Assembly (NCBI GenBank): GCA_965224025.1
Contig: OZ245033.1
Span: 4,512,001-4,576,000 of the forward strand
Origin: Candidatus Multivorans sp.
GTDB taxonomy: Bacteria > Acidobacteriota > Thermoanaerobaculia > Multivoradales > Multivoraceae
Direction: 5' to 3'
Length of the DNA: 64,000 nt
This document shows, piece after piece, positions 42,268-54,053 of the stretch; within the stretch, counting starts at the first letter, position 1; each line of letters begins with the position of its first letter. The notes under the pieces were generated by a model. It was given only the letters and a program-made list of their open reading frames with translations. It had not been told where the DNA came from and searched no databases. Made by a program: the position numbers and the translations under genes.

Positions 42268-44841
42268 TTACGGGGATCCGAAGCGAGCGTCGTTCAGACG
42301 CCAGTAGTCGTCGGACCCCTTCAACTTGTCCAGCGCCGCATTCTTCTGCAAGACGTCCCATGGCGTCTCGCCCTCGGCATTCCGCGCCGTCGCGTCCGCG
42401 CCGGCATCCAGCAACGGACCGACCAGTCCCGGTTCCAGAATCAGTCCAAAGTCCGACCGGGCCCATGCATGCAAAGACGTGTCGCCTCCCAGGTGCCGGG
42501 CATTCGGATCGGCGCCAGCGGCGATCAGTGCCTTCACGGCGTCCGCTGTACCGCGCTCGGCAGCGACATGCAGAGGAGTCGTGCCCAATTCGGTTCGCGC
42601 ATTCACGCCGGCGCCGGCAGCGACCAGAACCTTCACCAACTCCGAGACGCCGTCCAGGACAGGGAATCGCAGCGGCGTGTACCGACGGTGGCCGCCGAGG
42701 AGAACTGCACGACGCGACTGGACCGCGTACGCCTTGGGACGGAGGCCTGCCACAGCCAAGTGCAGAGGAGTCGTTCCCGACTCGGTAGGCGCATTCGCCT
42801 CGGTGCCGGCTGCGAGCAGACCTTTCACCAACTCCGAGATGCCGCCCAGGGTCACGGACCAGCCGAAGATGCCCCCCAGCGGGTAGGTGCGACTCGTACA
42901 AGGTCGCAGAGGTGTGCGCTCAGGAGTCATGGTTCGCGCACTCGGGTCGGCACCGGCAGCGAGCAGCACCGTCAGCAACTCAAGGTAGCGGGCAAAGGCC
43001 CGCAGGACCGCGCCCGATTCGCCCCTCTCTTTGCCGTCGGCGCCCGCGACCGTCCGCGCCCTTCCCAACTCCGAAGCACCGAAGACGACACCAACGTGCA
43101 GGGGCGTCGCGCCGAACTCACTTCGCGCACTCACGTCGGCGCCGGCACCGAGCAGCGCCTGCACCGACTCAGCGCAGCCGTAGCCGGCAGCGACATGAAG
43201 AGGCGTCCATTCGGACCAGGCAGTCGGCACATCTTCGAGCCAGGAAGCCAGCTCACAACGGTCGACCAGATCCCACCGGGATACGCTCTGCGCCGTCTCC
43301 GCACCGACCTGGTCGATGTAGTGCAGGAGTTTCGAGTCGCTTGCCGCACGGATCGGATCAGCGCCGGCAGCAAGCAACGCCTCCATCATCTCTACCTTGC
43401 CGACCGCGGAATGCAGGGGCGTGTGGCCTGTCCCGCTCTCCACGTTCGGATCAGCGCCAGCAGCGAGCAGCGCTCTAACCACCTCAAGGTGGCCGTAGGC
43501 GGCAGCCAGGTGCAGAGGCGTTTCGTCGAAGTCGGCAAGATCCTCTTCGTCCTGGGCCTTCGCGTTCGGGTCGGCACTCACGGTGATCAGGGCCTGAACC
43601 GACTCAAGGCTGCCGCTCCTGGCAGCACGGTGCAGAGGAGTCTGGCACCAGCCGTCCTGGGCCGCCGGATCAGCGCCGGCAGCGATCAGGAGCCGGACAG
43701 CCTCCGGATTGTCCGTGGCAGCGCGGTGCAGAGGAGTCTGGCCCACGCTGTCCCGCGTATTCAGGTCAGAGCAAACTGCGGCCAACGCCTCCACCGACTC
43801 CGGATCGCCCTCCTCGACGGCAGCATGCAGAGGCGTCGCCGCAAAGTCCCCGACACCGTATGCGTTCGGGTCGGCACCGCCAGCAAGCAGCGCCCGCACC
43901 GCATCAGTACCGCCGCTTCCAGCAGCACAGTGCAGAGGCGTGCCGATGTCGTCCCCGGCACACTGCGCGTTCGGGTCGGCGCCAGCGGCCAGCAGCGTCC
44001 TCACGGCCTCCAAGTCGCCCTCAAGGGCGGCATCGTGCAGTGGCGTCCAGACGGCCTCGTCCCGAGCCAACAAGCGGGCGTCGTTCAGACGCCGATAGGC
44101 GACCGACCCCTCGACCTTGTGCAGGGAGGGGTTCTTCTCCAGGAGGTCCCAAGGTGTCGCGCCCTCGGCATTCAGTGCCGCGGCGTTCGCACCGGCATCG
44201 AGCAGCACACAGACCGAACTTTCGACACTCACGAAGTCCGACCCGGCCCACGAATGCAAGGGAGTGTCACCGTAGGGGGTGCGGCAGTTCGGGTCGGCGC
44301 CGGCAGCGATGAGCGCGCGCACAGTCTCCGGGGTTCCGTGTTCGGCTGCATGATGCAGCGGTGTCTCACCGCTTACTGTCCGCGCACTCAGGTCGGCCCC
44401 AGCAGCGATCAGAACCGGCACAGCATCCGAGTGGCCCCACCCGGCTGCAAGATGCAACGGCGTCTCACCGTGTTCTGTCCGCGCATTCAAGTCGGCGCCA
44501 ACGGCGATCACGAGCCCAAGAATCTCCGTCGCATCATCGCGGACCGCCTCGTCGCGAGCCGCCTCGTGAAGAAGCGTGCCCTCCCACCCGGTTGAGAGAT
44601 TCGGGTCGGCGCCACCAGCGATCAGGGCCTGCATCAACTCAAGACGCACCGGATCGGACGGTTCAAGCTCGCAGTCGAAGGCAGCAGACCAAAGTGGCGT
44701 CTGGGAGCCCCCATCCACCGCGTTCGGGTCGGCGCCGACCGCGAGGAGGGCCTTGGTCAATTCCAGGTTGCCCTTCTCGACAGCCACATGCAGCTCCGTC
44801 AGGGAACGTGCGTCCCGTGCGTCAGGTGGCTCGCGCTTCAT
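42268..44841 (-). CDS. large ankyrin-repeat protein 3 (857 aa, no signal peptide)
   Basis: Many TPLH...GADPNA repeats; cap motif occurs internally (TPWDLLEKN...AYRRLNDAR) and at the end (DDYWRLNDARFGSP). Confidence 0.92.
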   Translation of the reverse strand: MKREPPDARDARSLTELHVAVEKGNLELTKALLAVGADPNAVDGGSQTPLWSAAFDCELEPSDPVRLELMQALIAGGADPNLSTGWEGTLLHEAARDEAVRDDATEILGLVIAVGADLNARTEHGETPLHLAAGWGHSDAVPVLIAAGADLSARTVSGETPLHHAAEHGTPETVRALIAAGADPNCRTPYGDTPLHSWAGSDFVSVESSVCVLLDAGANAAALNAEGATPWDLLEKNPSLHKVEGSVAYRRLNDARLLARDEAVWTPLHDAALEGDLEAVRTLLAAGADPNAQCAGDDIGTPLHCAAGSGGTDAVRALLAGGADPNAYGVGDFAATPLHAAVEEGDPESVEALAAVCSDLNTRDSVGQTPLHRAATDNPEAVRLLIAAGADPAAQDGWCQTPLHRAARSGSLESVQALITVSADPNAKAQDEEDLADFDETPLHLAAAYGHLEVVRALLAAGADPNVESGTGHTPLHSAVGKVEMMEALLAAGADPIRAASDSKLLHYIDQVGAETAQSVSRWDLVDRCELASWLEDVPTAWSEWTPLHVAAGYGCAESVQALLGAGADVSARSEFGATPLHVGVVFGASELGRARTVAGADGKERGESGAVLRAFARYLELLTVLLAAGADPSARTMTPERTPLRPCTSRTYPLGGIFGWSVTLGGISELVKGLLAAGTEANAPTESGTTPLHLAVAGLRPKAYAVQSRRAVLLGGHRRYTPLRFPVLDGVSELVKVLVAAGAGVNARTELGTTPLHVAAERGTADAVKALIAAGADPNARHLGGDTSLHAWARSDFGLILEPGLVGPLLDAGADATARNAEGETPWDVLQKNAALDKLKGSDDYWRLNDARFGSP

Positions 44842-45030: not shown

Positions 45031-45585
45031 TCAGGAGAAGACGCGTGGGACGAAACCGGTCTCGTTGATGGTGCTTGCGCTGCTCCCGGTCGCCCGGATC
45101 ACGAACAGCCCCTGCCGCTCGGCGTAGACGCCGACCGTGCTGTCGCTCCTGAGATAGGCCACGGCGCCGTACACGGCGTGCCTCCGGTACTCGGGGCAGA
45201 ACTCCAGGAATCGCTTCAGCTTGTCCAGGAAGCGGGTCACGTCTTCCGACCGGAGAGTCGTCTTGACCTCCACGACGACGACCTCGGCTCCGTTGATCGC
45301 CAGAATGTCGATCTCGAAGTGCTCGCCGTTGCGCTTGCCGGTGACTCGCTGATAGGTCCGCTCAACGGCGATACCGCGCTGCTTCAGCAGCGGCACGAGG
45401 TCGCCATCGACAAGGCTCTCCATCAGCTTGCCCCACTGCGAGGTGAACAGGGCCTCCGCTTTCTTCAGCCGACCGTCCGTCTCCTTCATCTGCAGCGCGG
45501 TCTCCTGCTGCATTGCCGCGACCCGCCGCAAGGTCTCCCGAATCTCAGCGAAGCTGGACGGGTCGTTCGCTCCAATCGTGCTCAT
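45031..45585 (-). CDS. coiled-coil + PD-(D/E)XK restriction-endonuclease-like protein
   Basis: QMKETD coiled coil, WGKLMESLV, EIDILAIN...VVVVEVKTTL, AERQGLFVIRATG. Confidence 0.8.
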   Translation of the reverse strand: MSTIGANDPSSFAEIRETLRRVAAMQQETALQMKETDGRLKKAEALFTSQWGKLMESLVDGDLVPLLKQRGIAVERTYQRVTGKRNGEHFEIDILAINGAEVVVVEVKTTLRSEDVTRFLDKLKRFLEFCPEYRRHAVYGAVAYLRSDSTVGVYAERQGLFVIRATGSSASTINETGFVPRVFS

Positions 45586-45718
45586 GCTCCTTCGTTCTCC
45601 TCCCTCTTGGGGCGGAGGTTCCGCGGTCGGGGCCCCGCGACCACGCAAAGTCGGCAGGGAAACCGGAGAAGGCCGGCAAGGGACAACATCGTATCCAAGT
45701 CCTGCTAGCTTCCGCCGC

Positions 45719-46735
45719 ATGGCACTCAAACTCGGACTACAGCTCGGCTACTGGGGCGCCGGACCGCGCGCCGACTTCCTGGACACCGCCATCGAGGCGG
45801 AAGCACTCGGCTACGACTGCGTCTTCACCGCGGAGGCCTGGGGCTCGGACGTGTTCACGCCTCTGGCCTGGATCGGCGCCCACACTTCGAAGATCCGCCT
45901 CGGCACCGGTATCGCGCAGATCTCGGCCCGCACGCCGGCCGCTACCGCAATGCACGCGATGACCCTGGACCATCTCTCCGAGGGTCGGGTCATCCTCGGC
46001 CTCGGCGTCTCCGGCCCCCAGGTCGTCGAGGGCTGGTACGGACAACCCTTCGGCAAACCCCTCTCCCGCACCCGCGCCTACATCGAGATCATCCAGAAGA
46101 TCCTCGCCCGCGAAGAGCCCGTGACCCAGCACGGCCAGCACTACCAGCTCCCCTACACCGGCGACGGTTCCTGGGGCCTCGGCAAGCCGCTCCGCTCGAT
46201 CGTCCACCCACTCCGCTCCGACCTGCCCATTTTCCTCGGCGCCGAGGGCCCGAAGAACGTCGCCCTTGCCGCCGAACTCTGCAGCGGCTGGCTACCCCTC
46301 TACTACTCGCCCTACCGCCCCGAGGTCTACGCCGAGTCGCTCGCCGGCCGCGGCAACGGCTTCGAGGTCGCCTACGGCGCCCGCCTCCGCGTCCACGACG
46401 ACGTCTCCGATGCCCTCCTCCCGATCAAGCAGTCCCTCGCCCTCTACGTCGGCGGCATGGGCGCCAAGAAGCGCAACTTCCACCGCGAACTCATGGCCCG
46501 AATGGGCTGGGAGGAAGAGTCCTTCCGCATCCAGGAACTCTTCATGACCGGCAAACGCGAAGAGGCCGTCGCCGCCGTCCCCGACGACTTCACCGACGAG
46601 ATCTCCCTCGTCGGGCCGCCCGAACGGATCAAGGACCGCCTCCAGGCCTTCGAAGACAGCGACGTTACGACGCTGCTCGTCGGCGCCGCCAGCAAGGAGG
46701 AGCTGCGGCAGGCCGCGGAGATCGTGCTGGGCTAG
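45719..46735 (+). CDS. LLM class F420-dependent oxidoreductase
   Basis: TAEAWGSD, QISARTPA, LGLGVSGPQVVEGWYG, GAEGPKNV, YVGGMGA. Confidence 0.9.
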   Translation: MALKLGLQLGYWGAGPRADFLDTAIEAEALGYDCVFTAEAWGSDVFTPLAWIGAHTSKIRLGTGIAQISARTPAATAMHAMTLDHLSEGRVILGLGVSGPQVVEGWYGQPFGKPLSRTRAYIEIIQKILAREEPVTQHGQHYQLPYTGDGSWGLGKPLRSIVHPLRSDLPIFLGAEGPKNVALAAELCSGWLPLYYSPYRPEVYAESLAGRGNGFEVAYGARLRVHDDVSDALLPIKQSLALYVGGMGAKKRNFHRELMARMGWEEESFRIQELFMTGKREEAVAAVPDDFTDEISLVGPPERIKDRLQAFEDSDVTTLLVGAASKEELRQAAEIVLG

Positions 46736-46766
46736 GCCCGGGCGTCGGCGGCACCCGCCCGCTTTC

Positions 46767-46932
46767 GGGGCTCCAGAGGGGGGTCCTCCCAGGTGCCGCT
46801 CGCGCTTGGTCGGAGAATGGAGGGAGGAGCGCTCACTGCACTCCGCTCGCTTCGGCCAGTCGTCTGTTAACTGTGAGGACGTCGCGCGTCGCTCGCTCCG
46901 AGCCACCTGGGAGGACCCCCCTCCGGAGCCCC
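46767..46932. repeat. 166-bp element bounded by 29-bp inverted repeats (MITE-like or structured RNA)
   Basis: GGGGCTCCAGAGGGGGGTCCTCCCAGGTG (46767-46795) vs CACCTGGGAGGACCCCCCTCCGGAGCCCC (46904-46932), 28/29 complementary. Confidence 0.75.
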
Positions 46933-47075
46933 TGGGCGGGCTGGAGGACGTGCTCTCACAGCTGCCGGTGTCAGCACGTCCAACGATCTGGACGAACACT
47001 CCTAGCGACGACTCCCGCTGATACTCTTCGGCAGACCTCTTGAGGCAAGGCAGATCTCCTTCAGTTGAGGCACGG

Positions 47076-47885
47076 ATGAACGACATGCGGAGCGCCACAC
47101 AGGAGCGACTCTTCGGGGCCGTCGACGCAGCCAGCGCAGAGCCAGCTAAGCGAGTCCAGGGCGGTGAACCCAGTACAGACCTCACCCTGTCGGCATACAC
47201 AGGAGGCAACGCCGACGTCTTTCCGCGCGTGCTGGGACTACATGTGGCTCGCGGCTCAATCGTCGCAGATGTGACTTACGGCAAAGGCGTGTTCTGGAGA
47301 AACGTACCCTCCGACGCCTATCGACTCAGGGCCACCGACCTACAGACTGGCGTTGATTGCAGGGACCTCCCGTACGCGGACAACTCCATCGACTGCGTCG
47401 TGCTTGATCCTCCATACATGGAAGGTCTCTTTCGCCGCGCCACGGACCAGATGGCCGGTTCCGGCAACTACGCGGCCTTCCGCGACCACTACTCCAACAG
47501 CGAGGCCACGCCCGATCAGCCGAAGTCGGGACGCTGGCACGCCGCCGTCCTCCATCTCTACTTCTCGGCCGGCAGGGAGGCCCACCGGGTTCTGCGGCCA
47601 ACCGGAACGCTGATCGTCAAGTGCCAGGATGAGGTAAGCGCCAACCGGCAGAACCTCACTCACGTCGAGATCCTCAACGAGTACGCCGAACTGGGCTTCT
47701 ACGCTCGCGATCTCTTCGTCGTCGTCCGCGCCAACCGCCCGGGGGTCAGCCGGATCAAGACGCAAGTTCACGCCCGCAAGAACCACTCCTACTTTCTTGT
47801 CTTCGAGAAGATGAGGCTGGCCGCCGACGCGAAGACCTATCGCTCTTCGCCGATCTCTCGCAACAGCTCCCAAGGCTCCTCGTAG
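47076..47885 (+). CDS. DNA amino-methyltransferase (m6A/m4C) of a type II R-M system
   Basis: SAM-binding motif DVTYGKG followed by catalytic DPPY; convergent with an endonuclease gene. Confidence 0.85.
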
Positions 47886-48643
47886 AACGGCGGTTCCGGC
47901 GGCCATGTGACGGAAACCAACGTCGCGAGCAGGTGCCGTTTCTGGTACTCGGTGTAGCCACGATAAGAGGACCGTGGCAGGTCACCGTTCTTGGCGAAGA
48001 TGAAGCGCCACTCGTCACCAAAAGCGAACAGGTTCACGGCCAGAAGGTCGAACTGGCCAGCCAACAAGCATGTGGTCGCAAGTTCGGAACCGTCCGGTAG
48101 TTGAACAGAGCGTCGGTCGCTCGCGTCGACCTGAGTCTTCCCGGACCACCCGGTCTCCGTCTCTCGAACCGAATTCGTTTGCAACGACTTCAACTCCACG
48201 ACGAACCGCCGGCCAAGGTACGTGATGACGCGGTCACCCTTCCGCCTCCGGTCATGATCATCGTCCTTGTGAGAGGCAGTCACCTGCTCATGGCTCTCAA
48301 GCAGCCCTGCAAGCTTCTGCTCTGCAACGTAGCCGAGCAACATTCCCCTAAGGCTCGGGTTCTCGTCGACCACCGCCGTCAACTCCTCCGCCGAGAGCTC
48401 CCAACGGTCCAAGACCGTATCGTCCGATCCGACCAGTCTTCTGAGGAACGCCGACGGCTCGCAGTCGAGAACCTCTAGGATCTTGAGGAGTTCGGCCACA
48501 TCCAAGCGTCGTTCGCCCCTCTCGTACTTCGAAACGAACGACTGCGGCCGGTCCAGTTGGGCCGCCAGGTCCTCTTGGCTGAGCCTTCTGAGCGTCCTCT
48601 CGGCGCGCAACAACTCGCGAACACGACTGCGGGGTAGGTGCAT
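47837..48643 (-). CDS. XRE/controller HTH fused to a type II restriction endonuclease-like domain
   Basis: [31 protein letters not shown] (C-protein-like HTH); [14 protein letters not shown]...KGD...VELKSLQT (PD-ExK). Confidence 0.8.
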
Positions 48644-48673
48644 ACGGGTGCACGTTAGCCGCAAGCCCAAGGC

Positions 48674-48690
48674 AAACCCAAACCGGGTTT
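48674..48690. promoter_or_regulatory. candidate controller-protein operator AAACCC-N5-GGGTTT
   Basis: Perfect 6-bp palindrome about 30 bp upstream of the HTH-REase start. Confidence 0.4.
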
Positions 48691-48694
48691 TGTC

Positions 48695-50064
48695 GAGCTA
48701 CTGCCAGAAGTTGTGGATCCGTTGATGTAGATCAGGCGGCGTATCCTCCTGGGTGTTCAACTGAATACCCGGTCGGATACCGGGAGAAAGGACACGCCGC
48801 CCGATGCTCAAGATACTGGAAACCGTACCGGAGGGGAAAGTCCCCTCGACGCTCGACGAGCTGGCCCGCGAGGGTGCTCGCCGGATGCTGATGGAGGCGC
48901 TGGACGCCGAAGTCGCCGACTACGTGGAGAGACACCGGGCCGAGCGCGGCGCCGACGGTCGGGCTCTGGTGGTCCGCAACGGCAGAGGCCAGCCGCGGCA
49001 GGTGACGACGGGCGCAGGCACGGTGGAAGTGCAGGCACCGCGCGTGGATGATCGGAGGCCTGACCATCGCTTCACCAGCACGATCCTCCCGCCGTACATG
49101 CGCCGCTCGCCGAAAGTGTCGGAGGTGCTTCCGGTGCTGTACCTCCGGGGCCTGTCGACGGGCGACTTCAAGGAAGCGCTCGGCGCGTTGCTGGGGGACA
49201 AGGCCTCGGGCCTGTCGGCTTCCAGCATCACGCGGATGACGTCGGCCTGGGAGGAGGAGTACCGGTCCTTCCGGCAACGAGACCTGAGCGCCGAGGACTA
49301 CGTGTACGTGTGGGCCGACGGCGTGCACTTCCGGGGCCGCCTGGAGGACGATCGCCTGTGCACGCTGGTCCTGCTTGGCGTGCGCCGTGACGGCACCAAG
49401 GAGCTGATCGCTGTCGAGGATGGTATCGCGAGAGCGCGGAGAGCTGGGCGAGCGTCCTGCGGGACCTGAAGCGCCGCGGCCTGCGAGCGCCGGTCCTGGC
49501 CATCGGCGACGGCGCTCTGGGCCTGTGGCGGGCGATCCGCGACGTGTGGCCCGAAACCAGGGAGCAGAGATGCTGGGTGCATCGGCTCAGGAACGTGCTG
49601 GACAAGCTGCCGAAGCGGCTGCAGGCCAAGGCCAAGAGGGCTCTGCACGAGATCATGTACGCGGAGTGCCGCGAGGATGCCGAGGCGGAGATCGAACGCT
49701 TCGCCGAGGACTACGGCGCCAAGTACCCCAAGGCGGTCGAATCGCTGCAAAGGGACCAGGACTGCCTGCTCAGTTTCTTCGACTTCCCGGCCGAGCACTG
49801 GCAGCACCTGCGCACCACCAACGCGGTCGAGTCGACGTTTGCCACGGTCAAGCTGCGACAGCGGGTCACCAAGGGCGCCGGCTCACGGACCAAGGCCCTG
49901 CTGATGGCTTTCAAGCTGCTCGACATGGCCCAGAAACGCTGGCGACGAGTCAACGCTCCGCACCTCGTCGGACCGGTCAGAGAAGGAGTACCATTCACCA
50001 ACGGAACTCAGGTCAGGAACGCTGCCTGATCAACTCGCCGATCCACAACTTTCGGCAATACCTC
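48695..50064 (+). mobile_element. IS256-family insertion sequence (1370 bp)
   Basis: Terminal IRs GAGCTACTGCCAGAAGTTGTGGATC / GAGGTATTGCCGAAAGTTGTGGATC; 9-bp TSD GGTTTTGTC at 48686-48694 and 50065-50073. Confidence 0.93.
48804..50029 (+). pseudogene. IS256 transposase, frameshifted near 49425
   Basis: LYLRGLSTGDF, YVWADGVH, QRCWVH, LRTTNAVES; one base is missing in the GYRES motif. Confidence 0.88.
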
Positions 50065-50364
50065 GGTTTTGTCGGTCAATGCCCGAGACGCCCGGCACCA
50101 GATCCTCAGTCCCGTTCCAACGATTGTGTCCAGACGCGCAGCGCACGAAACCCCTTCGTCTATCGTCAGGCAACTCCACAATCGGGCGGTGAGTGATCGC
50201 CCTTTCGGGCTTCTGCCTCGTCGCTCTCAGCCCTGAGCCCTGAGACACTCACCCGAGACGATCTCTCCTCCAAGCGATTCAACCAAGCGACACTCCCGTC
50301 GCCCTGCGCTCCCTCGACGCTACCTCAAGCAACTGGCCTGCCCGGAACCACCGCCGACTACTCC

Positions 50365-51114
50365 TCAGAACGGAATGCCGTCGTCCGGTGAAGGCCCCTC
50401 TCGGTTCCCGCGGAGCCACGCCCTACCCACACTAGTCAACCGGTACGCCCGGAACGTCTCCCCGTCCCAGGTCTCATCCTCAAAGCGCTCTAGCATGCCT
50501 CTCTCTGACAACACGTCTAGGGCTAGGTTCCCATCCGCCCGAGAGAACCCTGACGCCGCCATTTTCTTGTGGAAGTCGTGCGCCACAATCCCATCGTCGG
50601 GATCAAGCACGTGTCCCAAGACGACTTGTAGTGCCACCCGCTCATATGAAGCGAGTTCCTGGCTAATCCCGACACTATCCTGAGGACCTTTCCTTCTTCC
50701 TCTTCTCTCGAGGATTGACTTGAGTCGTTCGGTCGTCCGCGTTCTGAGACGCTCGAAGTCGCTCGTCGAATGGCTCTCATACGGGATCACCTTTAGGTGA
50801 TGCACGTCGAACGGAAGCTTCTTGTCGTCCAGCCGCTTCTGGGAGCAGATTATGGCCACTTCTTCCTGGTGATACGCGAATGCGTATCCGAACTCGAACC
50901 ACACGTTGGGATTGTCAGTCGAAATCTCCGCGAGGCAAACATCTGACTCCTTGAGCTGCTTCAAGACTTCCAAGATGGGAACACTGGCGCCGCTGTCCCG
51001 GTCCACACGATACGGCTCCAGGCCAGCAGCTCTGATCGCCGGCTCGAGCACATCGTCGTACCGCTTGTCGAACTCGTCGGCGTCAAAGGGCTGAATGACG
51101 ACACATCGTGGCAT
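50365..51114 (-). CDS. nucleoside 2-deoxyribosyltransferase/TIR-like domain + wHTH-like domain with an SSB-like acidic tail
   Basis: CVVIQPF...YRVD...SDVCLAEISTDNPNVWFEFGYAFA...LPFDV; C-domain ending YRLTSVGRAWL; terminus DDGIPF. Confidence 0.8.
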   Translation of the reverse strand: MPRCVVIQPFDADEFDKRYDDVLEPAIRAAGLEPYRVDRDSGASVPILEVLKQLKESDVCLAEISTDNPNVWFEFGYAFAYHQEEVAIICSQKRLDDKKLPFDVHHLKVIPYESHSTSDFERLRTRTTERLKSILERRGRRKGPQDSVGISQELASYERVALQVVLGHVLDPDDGIVAHDFHKKMAASGFSRADGNLALDVLSERGMLERFEDETWDGETFRAYRLTSVGRAWLRGNREGPSPDDGIPF

Positions 51115-51751
51115 AGCGTGTTCCTCTAAGTCGAATGCAAGGCCTGCACAAGGCGCCGACTCGCTGAGCGGGAACGCATCGTATACTCCCGCCGTCGCCT
51201 CCGCTACACCCTCGCTGCTGCAGGCTGCGCGGATGACCATCCTCGCACGTCGTCAGGCTCTCAACGCGTTGTGCCACTTGCAGGCAGCGCCGGTCCAGTC
51301 CGCGTTGGCTTCGAGGGAAAGGGTTCCAGCGGGCTGGAGGCAAGTGGCTCCCCAAACCAGCCCCGCTACTGACGCCGCGGCGCAGCGGGGCCGGCCGAAG
51401 CGAGAGCTGACGTCTCCCACTTAGAGAGCGCGAGCGTCCACTTGGACCCTCCCATTCGGAGGCGGTACGACGGCAGACCGCGACGACGCCGCAATCTGCG
51501 CTACGCCCGCGCGAGCCGGCGGCTGTTGCGGCCGCGCCGCCTGACAGCGCGCGCGAACGCCAGGCCACGATGTGAACCCCGCAATTTTTCGGCAAGCGCG
51601 CGCGCGCCGACCCCCTCCATGGTCGCCGAGACCAAGAAGCGGTCCTCTCCCGCATGGACTACGAAGTCGCGACTAGCGCCGATGTCCGTGGCCGTGTGGA
51701 AGCCGCGGCGTGTCCCGCAAGAGCCGTCAGCGTGGACGTGCCGAGCAGGGC

Positions 51752-51792
51752 AACCTTGCAATCTGTCCATTGAATGGACAATCTGCAAGGTT
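51752..51792. promoter_or_regulatory. 41-bp imperfect palindrome, candidate AbiEi operator
   Basis: AACCTTGCA-atc-TGTCCATT-g-AATGGACA-atc-TGCAAGGTT, about 90 bp upstream of abiEi. Confidence 0.6.
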
Positions 51793-51883
51793 ACGAAGCT
51801 CCCTTCTCTCGCGACCAGAACCACGAGGACTCGCCGGCGCGACTCAAGCAGCAACAAGTTGCCGGAGTTGATAAGTTCCCGCC

Positions 51884-52519
51884 ATGAGATTCGAGGAACT
51901 CGTTGCCGCGGTAGCCGACGAGCCGGTCTTCGAGACCGGACTTCTGCTGGCCGGACCGGGCGACCCCGGCAACGTCAGGCGGCAACTGTCGCGCTGGGTC
52001 CGCGGAGGCAGAGTCCAGCAGATGCGTCGTGGACTGTATGCCCTCGCGCCGCCCTGGCAGCGGCGCGTCCCGCATCCGTTCCTGCTCGCCAACCGTCTGG
52101 CGCCAGGCTCCTACGTCAGCAGTCCGGCGGCGTTGGCCTTCGCTCATGCAATCCCCGAGCACGTACCGGAGGTCACCAGCGTGACGCCTGGACGCCCGCA
52201 CACGCGGCAGTTGCCGTCGGGCAGGTTCTCGTTCCGCCACCTGAAGGCGGATCGGGTCTTCGGCTACCGGCTGCTCGATCTGGGCGGCAATCAGCGGGCG
52301 TTCGTGGCGACCTCGGAGAAGGCGCTGCTCGACTCCGTCTACCTGCAGCCCGGCGGCGACGACGCTACGTACCTGCGGGAACTCCGACTCGACTTCGGCG
52401 CCCTGGATCTGGACGCCCTCGACCAGACGGCGGCGCGGTACGCCGCGCCGAAAGTGACTCGAGCGGCCCGCCGCATCCGCGAGCTCGCCGCCGCAACGCC
52501 CGCATACGACGTGCTGTGA
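51884..52519 (+). CDS. abiEi: type IV TA antitoxin, AbiEi family
   Basis: QLSRWVRGG...RRGLY wHTH, SYVS...ALA...IPE, ATSEKALLD. Confidence 0.88.
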   Translation: MRFEELVAAVADEPVFETGLLLAGPGDPGNVRRQLSRWVRGGRVQQMRRGLYALAPPWQRRVPHPFLLANRLAPGSYVSSPAALAFAHAIPEHVPEVTSVTPGRPHTRQLPSGRFSFRHLKADRVFGYRLLDLGGNQRAFVATSEKALLDSVYLQPGGDDATYLRELRLDFGALDLDALDQTAARYAAPKVTRAARRIRELAAATPAYDVL

Positions 52520-53334
52520 AGGATCACCTGAAGGCGTTGATCCGCCGGCACGACCCGTTGCGGGCCCGCAACGTGGTCAGTGAGTACCTCCAGGCGCGCG
52601 CGCTCCGGGCCATGCAGGGCGCCGGCGCCATGACCGCGTTGGCGTTCCAGGGCGGCACCTGCCTGCGCTTCCTGTTCTCGCTGCCCCGCTACTCGGACGA
52701 CCTGGACTTCGCACTCGAAGGCGACCGCACGGCGTACGATCTGCCGAAGTACCTGAAAGCCATCCGGGCCGAGCTCACCGCCGAGAACTATCGCGTGGCG
52801 CTACGGATTCGCGAACACCGCACCGTGCATGGTGCCTTCACGCGCTTCCCCGGCCTGCTCCACGAGTTGGGCCTGTCTCCGCACCGCTCGGAAGCGGTGG
52901 CGATCAAGATCGAAGTCGACACGAATCCCCCGCAGGGGGCGGGCTGCGAGATCAGCCTGGTGCGCCGCCACGTGACGCTCAGGCTGTTCCATCACGACCG
53001 CGCCTCCCTGTTGGCCGGCAAGCTCCATGCCGTTCTGGAGCGCGGCTACGCAAAGGGCCGGGATCTGTACGACCTGATCTGGTACCTGAGCGATCCGGAC
53101 TGGCCCGCACCCAACCTGTCGCTGCTCAACGCGGCGCTTCGCCAGAGCGACTGGGAGGGAGACGAACTGACGCCCCGTTCGTGGACCGAGCCGGTCGCGG
53201 AGCGACTGAAGGCGATCGACTGGGGGCGGGCGCTCGCGGATGTCCGTCCCTTCCTGGAACAACAGGACGACATCGACCTGATCACCCGCGACAATGCGCT
53301 GCGCCTGCTCGCCAGGTCGGGTTCAGGCCGGTAG
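52516..53334 (+). CDS. abiEii: type IV TA toxin, AbiEii nucleotidyltransferase
   Basis: GTGA overlap; FQGGTCLR...RYSDDLDF, KIEVD, AGKLHA, KGRDLYDL. Confidence 0.92.
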   Translation: MKDHLKALIRRHDPLRARNVVSEYLQARALRAMQGAGAMTALAFQGGTCLRFLFSLPRYSDDLDFALEGDRTAYDLPKYLKAIRAELTAENYRVALRIREHRTVHGAFTRFPGLLHELGLSPHRSEAVAIKIEVDTNPPQGAGCEISLVRRHVTLRLFHHDRASLLAGKLHAVLERGYAKGRDLYDLIWYLSDPDWPAPNLSLLNAALRQSDWEGDELTPRSWTEPVAERLKAIDWGRALADVRPFLEQQDDIDLITRDNALRLLARSGSGR

Positions 53335-53348
53335 CTGTCCGGCCGCGC

Positions 53349-54053
53349 CTACTTCCGCGCGGCCTGGCAGCGGGCGAATTCTCCGCCGACGCCCGGTAAT
53401 TCGTCCTCCAGCAGCGGCAACGACTCGATGGCTGGGCCGGCGCCGTACTGGCCGGCGGCGAGTCGGGCGCTCATGTTCGTGAAGGTCTCGAGCAGCGTCT
53501 TCGCGGTGCGGGGCGTCACGACCCCAGACCCCAGGCCGAAGGGCGGTTGCGGGTCGCTGACGGTCTCTTGGACGACTTCGACCGTTCCTTCCTGATCGCC
53601 AGGAGCGAGCAACCAGCGGCCGCGCATGCAAAGCACGCGTTTGCCCTTGAACTCTGGCGTCTGGTCGTCCGCGCCGACCATGTCGCCGATGACGTGGCCG
53701 TCAGCCGTGCGCCACCATGCGGCGCGGTCCATCGTGATCCGCCGGGTCATGCCCCTGCCGGAAACGCGCTGGCGGAGGGTCTGGAAGGGTGCGTCGAGGG
53801 GCGCCGCGGTTTCTTCCGTGCACATGGACTGCCAGTCGGGGCACGCCGCGGCATGGTCGAGGAGGGAGATGACGGTCGACATGGAGCCCGGAACCGTCAT
53901 CTCAGCCCGCACCAGGGGGTAGTCGGCATTCTCGATCGGGCAGGATTCGACGGTTACGGGACCTTCCGCTTCAAGGGGCTTGCATTCGGAGGCGGCTGAG
54001 GCTGGCGGGGCAGCAAACAGCACGAACGCAGCCACGGCGAACAGAGTCCCCAA
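53349..54053 (-). CDS. secreted START/SRPBCC-like lipid-binding protein (start uncertain; alternative ATG at 54176)
   Basis: Signal peptide ASA; VRAEMTV...CPDW...GRWLL...EVVQETVSDP pattern of START domains. Confidence 0.6.
   Translation of the reverse strand: MGTLFAVAAFVLFAAPPASAASECKPLEAEGPVTVESCPIENADYPLVRAEMTVPGSMSTVISLLDHAAACPDWQSMCTEETAAPLDAPFQTLRQRVSGRGMTRRITMDRAAWWRTADGHVIGDMVGADDQTPEFKGKRVLCMRGRWLLAPGDQEGTVEVVQETVSDPQPPFGLGSGVVTPRTAKTLLETFTNMSARLAAGQYGAGPAIESLPLLEDELPGVGGEFARCQAARK

Follow-up and report, generated by a model that had tools for sequence, protein, structure and literature searches.

The window, that is, the whole 64,000-nucleotide stretch of DNA analysed here, carries on its reverse strand a gene for a 249-aa protein (P0001), whose features are collected in Table 1. 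The open reading frame named in the preliminary description is real, spanning 249 aa with no internal stop, and both peptide strings quoted there are present in its translation, NPNVWFEFGYA as residues 68-78 and PSPDDGIPF as the C-terminus. The frame could be extended to position 51240; nearly all homologues start with M-x-x-C-[FV]-V-I-Q-P-F-D, as does the protein when begun at the ATG at 51114. G+C content is 55% at 50500-50999, within the gene, compared with ∼65–70% in the flanks. Upstream of the gene and in divergent orientation lie abiEi (E = 2.8e-45) and abiEii (E = 5.5e-65), both recognised by PADLOC profiles. On the side opposite from AbiE, a broken Mutator/IS256-type transposase (48804-50029) comes first and is followed by an N6/N4 DNA methylase with an HTH protein. 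The gene had been placed between a restriction-modification system and AbiE: AbiE is confirmed, as are the methylase and the HTH protein beyond the broken transposase, whereas the restriction enzyme is not. Promoter and terminator scans of 50000-52000 found neither, and an Rfam search of 46000-54000 (E up to 0.1) gave no match to a retron or any other RNA. With no reverse transcriptase (RT) in the neighbourhood and no conserved partner in the 80 loci described below, the earlier view of a stand-alone, RT-less protein holds.

Table 1. Features of the 249-aa protein gene, in positions of the window
Feature	Position	Strand	Evidence and remarks
CDS of the 249-aa protein (P0001)	50365..51114	-	Stop codon 50365-50367; stop-free translation; start backed by homologue N-termini and by the Shine-Dalgarno-like GAGGA
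Shine-Dalgarno-like GAGGA	51122..51126	-	7 nt 5' of the ATG at 51114; read from the sequence, consensus match only
N-terminal NDT/TIR-fold (flavodoxin-like) domain, residues 1 to ∼142, presumed effector	50689..51114	-	AF2, VIA-align, Foldseek, PADLOC
Motif T-D-N-P-N-V-W-F-E-F-G-Y-A, residues 66-78	50881..50919	-	Alignment; E74 is the candidate catalytic Glu
MarR/PadR-type winged helix-turn-helix, residues ∼150-238	50401..50667	-	VIA-align, profile matches, pLDDT 94-97
Short disordered linker, residues 239-243	50386..50400	-	pLDDT ∼50 in the last model block; gapped, variable alignment columns
C-terminal tip D-D-G-I-P-F, residues 244-249, SSB-Ct mimic	50368..50385	-	Sequence, conservation, co-variation with the same-genome SSB

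The AF2 monomer model of the protein reached a pLDDT of 87.5. In VIA-align comparisons, its N-terminal domain matched MilB (Z 13.5), TIR domains (Z 12-13), NDT (Z 12.1 and 11.8) and RCL (Z 11.8), and its C-terminal domain matched MarR/PadR/HxlR regulators (Z 11-12.6), with profile matches to TA0346 and PadR. The combination of an NDT/TIR-like domain with a winged helix, first proposed from the letters alone, is therefore borne out at the level of fold (VIA-align Z 11-13.5). Pfam scores of the protein were below cut-off for both NDT (PF05014, 14.3 versus 28.8 bits) and TIR (PF10137, 13.1 versus 24.7 bits), and some homologues carry a precomputed PF05014 match. Three PADLOC 'Effector TIR' models matched at E 7.3e-7 to 2.7e-4 (PDLC00733, E = 7.3e-7), and nothing else among the PADLOC profiles did at E up to 0.1. 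The SSB OB fold (PF00436) had no match in the protein, the folds there being NDT/TIR and winged helix. The closest ESM Atlas clusters are labelled 'hypothetical protein'.

Residues N68, N70, V71, W72, E74 and G76 are invariant in all 64 aligned sequences, and a profile match below threshold (E = 0.07) places the E74 motif (E-[FL]-G) opposite the E-L-G motif of Rcl/DNPH1. DNPH1/Rcl, MilB/BlsM and NDTs are the best structural matches of the N-terminal domain; they are metabolic enzymes and lack both the winged helix and the SSB-like tail. The TIR effectors of CBASS, Pycsar, Thoeris and SPARTA are likewise similar in fold (Z 12-13 to TIR domains, TIR-STING and SPARTA TIR-APAZ), but the conserved motif of our protein is closer to the NDT/DNPH1 Glu motif than to the TIR motif, its Pfam TIR score lies below cut-off, and no cyclase, Argonaute or other signal-producing partner stands beside its gene. 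NCBIfam offered nothing useful beyond a faint match to an Rv3488-family regulator (E = 0.079). That match and the typical MarR/PadR winged helix at the C-terminus would suit a ligand-sensing MarR/PadR-type repressor, with a nucleotide bound by the NDT-like domain and a tail that is incidental to function. We consider such a repressor very improbable: it would leave unexplained the invariant Glu motif and, as described below, a tip that tracks the host SSB through many independent changes, the exchange of the enzyme domain for a transmembrane (TM) domain, and the lack of a conserved regulated neighbour.

For the whole protein, the best Foldseek matches were the retron Ec86/Eco1 effector and TIR-STING, with NDT chains also listed. 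The retron chains 7xjg_J and 8qbl_E aligned over the full length at E = 8e-5 to 1e-4; their TM-scores were low (0.29-0.34) because the domains are placed differently. At the sequence level, no retron chain appeared in a PDB search at E up to 10, and no PADLOC profile linked the protein to a retron effector. The matched retron chains have ∼300 aa compared with ∼250 aa here. RcaT, the effector of retrons Sen2, Eco1/Ec86 and Eco9, works beside a reverse transcriptase and msr/msd RNA; the 249-aa protein has neither, nor any conserved neighbour. To our knowledge, RcaT does not carry an SSB-like tail. What the two share is the order of domains, NDT-like first and winged-helix DNA-binding second, which is the composition given for type II retron effectors in PMC7736814. 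The likeness to Ec86/Sen2 retron effectors claimed in the preliminary description therefore holds for fold and architecture.

RcaT is a dimer whose RT-msDNA partner holds it in check; toxicity sets in upon release, once it forms a tetramer or higher oligomer. The 249-aa protein is likewise predicted to form a homodimer, with an ipSAE of 0.56 compared with 0.02 for the best control, at least 45% of contacts shared between runs and a partner pLDDT of at least 75. In calibration, 20 of 30 proteins whose solved structures are pairs passed this mark, as did 1 of 23 whose structures are single chains. The predicted interface comprises residues 47-55, 64-81 and 101-106 and includes the most conserved motif with E74. 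As NDT and Rcl dimers have already been solved, the prediction may merely mirror the likeness to these proteins. The tail was of low confidence in the monomer model and made no confident contacts in the dimer run, which supports docking onto the protein's own domains neither way.

The SSB tip is a docking site for 'at least 17' genome-maintenance proteins, as stated in PMC10018359, and the E. coli SSB-Ct hexapeptide is D-D-D-I-P-F (PMC5872125). Like SSB-Ct, the C-terminus of our protein has acidic residues and then [ILV]-P-F at the extreme end, behind a disordered linker. In contrast to SSB, this tip follows an enzyme-like domain and a winged helix rather than an OB fold, and the linker, variable in length and sequence across the family, is far shorter (∼5-35 residues). 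The SSB of the same genome, which is the genome's sole PF00436 match and is encoded elsewhere from this gene, ends in D-D-D-I-P-F. Among 33,554 open frames of at least 80 aa in the genome, only four terminate in [DE]x[ILVM]PF. A terminal PF is found in 98 and a terminal F in 106 of the 120 closest homologues (the best 120 of ∼2,100 family matches at E up to 1e-3). PF also ends 118 of 149 representatives of 50%-identity clusters and 63 of 77 readable genes from species-representative genomes. Conservation of the terminal DDxIPF among homologues had been suggested as a check on the tail; the counts of 98/120 and 118/149 bear it out, and co-variation with the host SSB tip adds to it. The tail of the 249-aa protein is more than chance.

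Across the family, the tail tracks the SSB C-terminus of its own genome, and the two tips are the same or nearly the same. We compared 60 same-genome pairs, namely those in which the family tail and SSB both end in F. The residue at position -3 (I, L or V) was identical within 49 of the 60 pairs, whereas the average over shuffled pairings was 20.2 (sd 3.4), with 0 of 10,000 attaining 49. Further upstream, at positions -10 to -7, tail and SSB agreed at 57 of 240 sites; shuffles gave 20.5 (sd 4.5), again with 0 of 10,000 reaching the observed value. In three members (L024, L025 and L048), the last 10 residues are the same as those of the SSB in their own genome. On the protein tree, the state at -3 underwent a minimum of 16 (I), 9 (L) and 12 (V) changes. 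When only independent pairs on supported branches were counted, SSB shifted in parallel in on average ∼4.2 of 6 (I), 3.6 of 4 (L) and 5.0 of 6 (V) cases and in the opposite direction in 0.0. The corresponding sign tests were all concordant, each being underpowered (median p 0.06-0.125), and none reached 0.05.

Recent gene conversion from the 3' end of ssb was considered as a source of this agreement and ruled out in the 12 best-matching tail/SSB pairs. In these, the DNA is alike only over the last ∼30 nt, with synonymous differences, and is unrelated past the stop codon; the closest case to conversion is L025, with 28 of 30 nt identical to the ssb end. A likeness limited to the last ∼30 nt therefore points to selection at the protein level and not to a recent conversion event. 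Nine of the 77 family genes are without a terminal F. The host SSB does not account for these tail-less members, since five of the nine are in genomes with a normal SSB tip. One tail-less member, L027, adjoins a self-contained RT-protease retron.

Eight clusters of relatives have two hydrophobic helices instead of the NDT domain. Comparison of P0366 with P0006 showed that the winged helix and tail are identical at 89 of 97 residues, as against 8 of 100 at the N-terminus. One gene for a two-TM variant adjoins a type III methylase fragment. Enzymatic and transmembrane effectors alternate in the CBASS, Pycsar, Thoeris and SPARTA systems. The replacement of an enzyme by two TM helices is a swap typical of defence effectors and supports the view that the N-terminal domain is an effector.

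The family is large, unnamed and scattered over many phyla. A scan of 185,579 species genomes for exact peptide patterns yielded 395 confirmed stretches, and when 36 other genomes of the genus were searched, a single one gave a match, to a two-TM variant. Most copies of the family are chromosomal. An all-against-all BLASTP of 2,839 open reading frames within 7 kb of the gene at 80 loci revealed no conserved neighbour; every cluster present in more than five loci overlapped the gene itself. Many loci lie amid housekeeping genes; those flanking several loci include rpoC and pyruvate kinase, glutamine synthetase or dnaE.

Enrichment near defence genes, which the preliminary description had put forward as a check, was scanned with PADLOC-DB 2.0 at 51 loci and 43 control positions, 27 of the 80 loci being left out. 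It was found for named components but not for PADLOC hits in general. Named components occurred within 3 kb at 13 of the 51 loci and at 0 of the 43 controls (Fisher p = 1.7e-4, with the components curated after the hits had been seen). By the raw criterion of any PADLOC hit, the counts were 21/51 and 10/43, which is not significant (p = 0.08). At 38 of the 51 loci, no recognised defence gene lies inside 3 kb.

Some loci are close to transposases, integrase, resolvase or Bro-N genes. Eight IMG/VR viral contigs hold full-length members bearing SSB-like tips, and the N-terminal domain occurs alone in Staphylococcus and Dorea phages. These occurrences would fit a mobile-element or phage gene directed against the host, either with the tip as a decoy that diverts host nucleases and helicases from the DNA of the element or with an enzyme that destroys a defence signal, as in counter-defence or hijacking. 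However, searches of 50,697 phage and 72,556 plasmid records returned no match at a coverage of at least 80% in either set, with only the N-terminal domain matched, and besides the mostly chromosomal location of the family, the two-TM replacement suggests a cell-killing effector. We regard a role of this kind as quite unlikely.

SSB-like tips are also present on two repair nucleases of the same genome. Its XseB (Pfam Exonuc_VII_S, E = 4.5e-9) has DDDIPF at the C-terminus, with PF closing 89 of 94 XseB homologues; its FEN-type 5'-3' exonuclease (5_3_exonuc_N, E = 4.5e-29) ends in EDEVPF. An SSB-like tip alone is therefore no marker of a defence protein. Because these two ordinary repair nucleases carry such tips, a non-defence role is possible for the family as well. 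The protein might then be an accessory DNA-repair or nucleotide-sanitising enzyme whose N-terminal domain removes an unusual base from DNA or a nucleotide, whose winged helix binds DNA and whose tip serves only as an address tag for the SSB network, a use it may also have in XseB and the FEN-type exonuclease. The nearest solved folds, which include the nucleotide N-glycosidases DNPH1/RCL and MilB, and the housekeeping genes that flank many loci would also agree with such an enzyme. Against it stand the very patchy spread (one of the 36 genus genomes and, in the exact-pattern scan, the 395 stretches in 185,579 species genomes), the deviant G+C content, the lack of conserved context and the enrichment of named defence genes nearby. 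In close relatives, moreover, two TM helices take the place of the enzyme domain, an exchange that would be senseless for a repair enzyme. A role in repair is accordingly unlikely in our estimation.

We think it somewhat probable that the protein is a single-gene, RcaT-like abortive-infection (conflict) effector that senses or docks through its host-matched mimic of the SSB tip. For this effector, we infer the enzyme activity, what it binds, what triggers it and its protection against phage. The N-terminal NDT/TIR domain would be the toxic part, predicted to dimerise via its most conserved motif, and the winged helix with the SSB-tip mimic would be a sensing or regulatory module. By analogy with RcaT, TIR effectors and DNPH1/MilB, the N-terminal domain would act on NAD+ or a nucleotide by breaking an N-glycosidic bond, or else would ADP-ribosylate some target. 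The tip would fit into pockets that normally read the host SSB tip, such as those of ExoI, RecQ, PriA, chi and RecO, a fit to which its co-variation with the host SSB speaks only indirectly. In the version we favour, it would be a bait for phage proteins adapted to the host SSB tip, such as single-strand annealing recombinases, helicases/primases and nucleases, and oligomeric tip binders would cluster the effector into an active higher-order assembly. Bait, docking and sequestration are equally compatible with the present results.

Several defence systems illustrate how the SSB tip and its partners can be central to phage sensing. SSB-like phage proteins trigger DRT10 and are reported to trigger Retron-Eco8, DRT4 and DARNA. 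In DRT10, the trigger is Bas52_0087, which has the sequence FDDDIPF, and the host SSB-tip reader SbcB, an exonuclease, modulates the system, according to bioRxiv 10.64898/2026.04.29.721553. These systems sense an SSB-like tip borne by the phage protein, whereas here the presumed defence protein itself bears it. For a phage recombinase, PMC13490951 reports that RecT function tracks the last 7 residues of the host SSB. The control of DRT10 by SbcB (same preprint) also lends itself to a defence with the reversed trigger. In uninfected cells, a host SSB-tip reader or free SSB would then bind the tip and keep the effector dispersed and inactive; the effector would be freed and would assemble when single-stranded DNA and SSB accumulate or when a phage protein blocks or destroys the reader. 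A host-matched tip is no less suited to a host ligand than to a phage ligand, and RcaT, too, is restrained by a partner until its release. Yet no partner is encoded near the gene, and a permanent occupant of SSB-tip pockets might upset replication restart and repair. We judge this guarded state to be improbable, to the same degree as the repair enzyme.

In its full form, the bait model describes an 'integrated decoy' made of a linear motif, and we put it forward as a tentative possibility. The host-matched SSB tip would bait phage binders of the SSB hub, and oligomeric ones among these would gather the effector, interchangeable between the NDT/TIR enzyme and a pair of TM helices, into a lethal assembly; SSB-tip mimicry, as in this family and in the XseB of the lineage, might be a general, overlooked form of wiring into the SSB network. 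The integrated decoys of plant NLRs follow a related principle, in that the immune receptor bears a copy of a host feature targeted by pathogens, as bait. They belong to another kingdom and fold, and the copy there is a whole domain, whereas here it is a linear motif of 6-10 residues. A literature search, covering few subscription journals and no supplementary files, turned up nothing on an NDT- or TIR-like protein that carries an SSB-like tail.

Mimicry of the host SSB tip on an enzyme-like protein hints at an anti-phage sensor of a new kind. Genome maintenance in bacteria has its central docking peptide in the SSB tip, on which phages also rely. A decoy of a host hub motif would, if real, represent a new sensing principle in prokaryotic immunity and help to explain why defence is frequently triggered by phage recombinases and SSB-related proteins. 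The idea is readily testable because the family consists of one small gene with clear mutants (Glu, terminal Phe and tail swaps). The co-variation of tail and SSB offers a comparative readout of which SSB-tip residues are important in each lineage, and the winged helix with the tail could be put to use as a portable tag that brings cargo to SSB partners. The tip of XseB suggests that such mimicry extends past defence.

A word-indexed search returned 2,097 family proteins at E ≤1e-3, mostly of 245–275 aa and unnamed, and an HMM scan of 50%-identity representatives returned 25,510 at E ≤1e-3, 6,565 at 1e-10 and 527 at 1e-30, the wider HMM counts taking in other architectures with the N-domain alone in common. 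The preliminary description of P0001, the 249-aa protein under study, proposed to test whether the terminal DDxIPF is conserved among homologues, and it is: in the 120 close homologues listed, the last six residues have the consensus D-D-D-I-P-F and the tails end in F (106), PF (98) or [ILVM]PF (92), and PF closes 118 of 149 further 50%-identity representatives listed. The 77 readable family genes from 80 species-representative genomes end in PF in 63 cases and in F in 68. Between winged helix and tip, length and sequence vary freely in the family alignment. An [DE]x[ILVM]PF terminus occurs in 4 of the 33,554 open frames of at least 80 aa in the window's own genome. A D-P-F-A-D-E terminus, possibly a tail of another type, replaces [ILV]-P-F in four of the 149 listed representatives (P0124, P0228, P0231 and P0269).

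In the window's own genome, the single PF00436 match is an SSB ending G-G-D-D-D-I-P-F, and P0001 ends S-P-D-D-G-I-P-F. We compared the tail of the family gene with that of the SSB gene of the same genome, starting from 80 loci. Eleven were dropped (one genome flagged unpublished, three with an unreadable family gene, seven lacking a complete SSB) and L012 was left out as a second contig of the MAG holding L011, so that 68 pairs remain, 60 of them with both tails F-terminal. Counting the terminal residue as -1, 49 of these 60 pairs share their residue at position -3 (I, L, V or M), compared with a shuffled mean of 20.2 (sd 3.4; 0 of 10,000 shuffles reach 49); the mismatches are V against I (3 pairs), I against V (2), I against L (1) and odd residues (5). 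Of the 180 sites at positions -6 to -4, 108 agree (83.0 in shuffles), and at positions -10 to -7, which are unconserved among SSBs, 57 of 240 agree (20.5 in shuffles, sd 4.5; 0 of 10,000 reach 57). All ten last residues match the genome's own SSB at three loci (L024, L025 and L048), and others are one or two conservative changes off. This host-matched tip is the main new result.

As related proteins tend to occupy related hosts, a tree of the core (linker and tail removed) was also built; it requires a minimum of 16 (I), 9 (L) and 12 (V) changes of state at position -3. Across phylogenetically independent pairs on supported branches, the SSB on average shifts in the same direction in about 4.2 of 6, 3.6 of 4 and 5.0 of 6 and in the reverse direction in 0.0, each test alone being too small for significance (median p 0.06–0.125). 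At the DNA level, identity in the 12 best-matching pairs is limited to the last ~30 nt, stops with the stop codon and is interrupted by synonymous differences, indicating that the tip match is held by selection on the peptide. The same pattern rules out recent copying of the ssb 3' end as source of the match in these pairs.

The sole match within the genus covers only residues 133–249 of P0001. This 214-aa protein carries two N-terminal hydrophobic helices, then the same winged helix, a linker and D-D-I-P-F, in a genome whose SSB ends D-D-D-I-P-F; a type III methylase fragment (E = 3.9e-58) adjoins its gene. Eight clusters of this two-transmembrane (TM) type were found, all eight with hydrophobic segments centred near residues 15–33 and 57–75, and no such segments are present in P0001 or in the NDT-bearing homologue P0006. 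P0366, a close relative with the two TM helices, is identical to P0006 at 89 of the last 97 positions and at 8 of the first 100. The near-identical C-terminal part and unrelated N-termini indicate that the winged helix plus tail was recently joined to two modules, one enzyme-like and one membrane-inserting. In CBASS, Pycsar and retron systems, abortive-infection effectors typically alternate between enzyme and TM parts in this way. PMC7736814 lists the retron types whose partners are NDT or two-TM proteins.

The start of P0001 was placed at 51114 because homologue N-termini nearly all read M-x-x-C-[FV]-V-I-Q-P-F-D, as here, and GAGGA lies 7 nt upstream; the same frame remains open as far as 51240. 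An AlphaFold2 model (input 64 homologues; mean pLDDT 87.5) has two well-defined domains, residues 144–149 and the last block being of low confidence. Residues 1–142 form a flavodoxin-like NDT/TIR fold, with VIA-align matches to MilB (the best, Z 13.5), plant and animal TIR domains (Z 12–13), TIR-STING (Z 12.6–12.7), nucleoside 2'-deoxyribosyltransferases (Z 12.1 and 11.8) and RCL/DNPH1 (Z 11.8), and residues 150–240 form a MarR/PadR-type winged helix (Z 11–12.6). The earlier observation of an NDT/TIR-like domain, winged helix and SSB-like tip in one protein is confirmed and strengthened. Over its whole length, P0001 has the retron Ec86/Eco1 effector (7xjg_J, 8qbl_E) as Foldseek rank 1 (E about 1e-4), with low TM-scores. 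P0001 falls under the Pfam thresholds for NDT (14.3 versus 28.8 bits) and CAP12/Pycsar TIR (13.1 versus 24.7 bits), and an NCBIfam search with it gave nothing useful; three PADLOC 'Effector TIR' models match it (best E = 7.3e-7). The family profile aligns A-E-I-S-T-D-N-P-N-V-W-F-E-L-G-Y-A onto the Rcl/DNPH1 Glu motif, a weak match (E = 0.07), and C4, Q8, P9, F10, D11, D38, D40, N68, N70, V71, W72, E74, G76, P101, F102 and D103 are invariant in the 64-sequence alignment. The fold, the invariant Glu and the parallel with the type II retron toxin effector RcaT make it probable that the N-domain acts on NAD+ or a nucleotide by breaking its N-glycosidic bond, or else ADP-ribosylates a target.

NDT and Rcl enzymes build their active sites across a dimer. 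A predicted P0001 homodimer passes controls (ipSAE 0.56, the best control having 0.02; of proteins with solved structures, 20 of 30 known as pairs and 1 of 23 known as single chains reach the mark that P0001 passes), with at least 45% of contacts agreeing between runs and partner pLDDT of at least 75, although NDT and Rcl dimers are already solved and the pass may only mirror likeness to them. The predicted interface (residues 47–55, 64–81 and 101–106) coincides with the invariant motifs.

Record titles place the family in many bacterial phyla and one archaeal MAG, with matches at E ≤1e-10 in 2 of 60 relatives and, within the genus, 1 of 36. Records covering at least 80% of P0001 numbered 0 of 50,697 for phages and 0 of 72,556 for plasmids. 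Only the N-domain (residues 1 to about 113, 26–34% identity) recurs there: in hypothetical proteins of Staphylococcus aureus and Dorea phages, and on plasmids of Rhizobium, Agrobacterium, Acinetobacter and Pseudomonas opening 'TRAFs-binding domain'/TPR proteins. Full-length members with SSB-like tips lie on eight IMG/VR contigs. No ORF cluster is common to more than 5 of the 80 loci, save frames overlapping the family gene itself. G+C is 0.55 in 50500–50999 versus about 0.65–0.70 in the surroundings, the P0001 gene being the poorer.

The preliminary description set the gene between a restriction-modification system and AbiE. AbiEi/AbiEii and a methylase are indeed present, but a broken transposase intervenes and the restriction enzyme is only a candidate, which may be the unassigned C-terminal part of a 277-aa HTH protein. 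The about 770 nt from the P0001 start to abiEi (51115–51883) hold no convincing gene, Rfam match, or promoter- or terminator-like site.

Features of the window and of two other regions of the same genome (L232 and L233)
Feature	Position	Strand	Remarks
857-aa frame	42268-44841	minus	looks by eye like a long array of ankyrin-type repeats
232-aa protein	45031-45729	minus	Hjc/PD-(D/E)XK nuclease domain, Pfam E = 3.5e-6; PADLOC CARF_PDDEXK models, E = 1.1e-7
N6/N4 DNA methylase	47040-47885	plus	converges on next protein, 49 nt overlap
277-aa protein	47837-48670	minus	N-terminal Cro/C1-type HTH, like restriction-modification control proteins
Broken transposase, Mutator/IS256-family	48804-50029	plus	between methylase pair and P0001 gene; two frames, 48804-49469 (profile positions 20-201) and 49544-50029 (245-353)
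P0001 coding frame	50365..51114	minus	open frame, 249 codons
AbiEi, AbiEii			divergent from P0001 gene; E = 2.8e-45, E = 5.5e-65
XseB, exonuclease VII small subunit	L232:5111-5416; G000:C1 about 903,110-903,415	minus	Pfam Exonuc_VII_S E = 4.5e-9
FEN/ExoIX-type 5'-3' exonuclease, 303 aa	L233:5200-6111; G000:C1 about 4,317,200-4,318,110	minus	Pfam 5_3_exonuc_N E = 4.5e-29

Defence-gene enrichment near homologues was assessed by crude ORF calls (longest non-overlapping frames of at least 90 aa within 3 kb; PADLOC E ≤1e-12) at 51 loci (L001–L052 minus L012), the 27 remaining loci lying outside the scan, with controls at 43 arbitrary positions drawn from 23 of these genomes, the control ORFs being clipped at the edges of 6.8-kb pieces. 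The enrichment that the preliminary description proposed to look for was found for named components alone (13 of 51 loci versus 0 of 43 controls, p = 1.7e-4, on a list curated after the matches were known) but not for any PADLOC match (21 of 51 versus 10 of 43, Fisher p = 0.08), many such matches being generic (kinase, sigma-54 activator, ABC-type 'mad3', cysteine desulfurase). Classed as named components were ThsB-type TIR, restriction enzymes and methylases, DRT UG36, AbiP2, retron RT, BrxL with OLD, SIR2/PDC-S65, TmtA, a type IV enzyme and Tin. Pfam neighbours at the first 25 loci include housekeeping genes (rpoC and pyruvate kinase, glutamine synthetase, dnaE, transketolase), toxin-antitoxin genes (HigB, BrnT/BrnA, DUF5615), mobile elements (transposases, integrase, resolvase with Bro-N), an ABC-3C CTD11 protein, and Abi_C with Mrr_cat. 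Judged by these neighbourhoods, the family gene has the character of a small accessory insertion, often but not mostly in defence islands. About 290 nt separate one tail-less family member (L027:3883-4701) from an RT-protease of the retron type (L027:1991-3595, minus strand; PADLOC RT-Protease_XI E = 7e-159).

The comparative data show an architecture of two joined modules: the winged helix and the host-matched SSB tip make up a regulatory one, and the other is a replaceable killing module. As the tip tracks host SSB at positions -10 to -1, which is otherwise unexplained, it must have a reader that also reads the SSB tip. Candidates would be host proteins that interact with SSB, or phage proteins that have adapted to the tip of the host's SSB. 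Phage RecT function tracks the last seven residues of host SSB (PMC13490951), and DRT10, restrained by the SSB-tip reader SbcB, has as its trigger an SSB-like phage protein whose tip is the same (bioRxiv 10.64898/2026.04.29.721553). We favour a bait reading, in which the tip would capture phage SSB-tip-binding proteins, because the NDT/TIR enzyme and the TM module are kinds switched on by clustering and phage SSB-tip binders are oligomeric; if this reading holds, the sensing principle would be new. A guard or sequestration logic, in which a host reader keeps hold of the tip and infection releases it, accounts for the data as well as bait in most respects, and we consider it improbable. The defence interpretation offered earlier is supported in part. 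In a literature search with thin coverage of subscription journals and supplements outside it, we found no published description of the family or of an SSB-like tail on an NDT/TIR protein; the nearest ESM Atlas clusters are 'hypothetical protein', and a few members are named 'nucleoside 2-deoxyribosyltransferase' in source records. The P0001 family is a new RT-less, SSB-tip-bearing form of NDT/TIR-plus-winged-helix effector.

Two of the three other [DE]x[ILVM]PF-ending frames in the genome are ordinary repair nucleases outside the window: XseB, just downstream of xseA, ends D-D-D-I-P-F as does the genome's SSB, and the FEN/ExoIX-type exonuclease ends E-D-E-V-P-F. SSB-tip mimicry is therefore neither unique to the family nor by itself proof of defence, and may be a wider means of joining proteins to the SSB network. 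These two tips keep alive a repair or nucleotide-sanitising role for the family, which its patchy distribution and the exchange of the enzyme domain for a TM module nevertheless make unlikely. Among XseB homologues found, 89 of 94 end in PF, the few named sources being Holophagales or Acidobacteriota MAGs; judged from these termini, the SSB-like XseB end is a conserved lineage feature.
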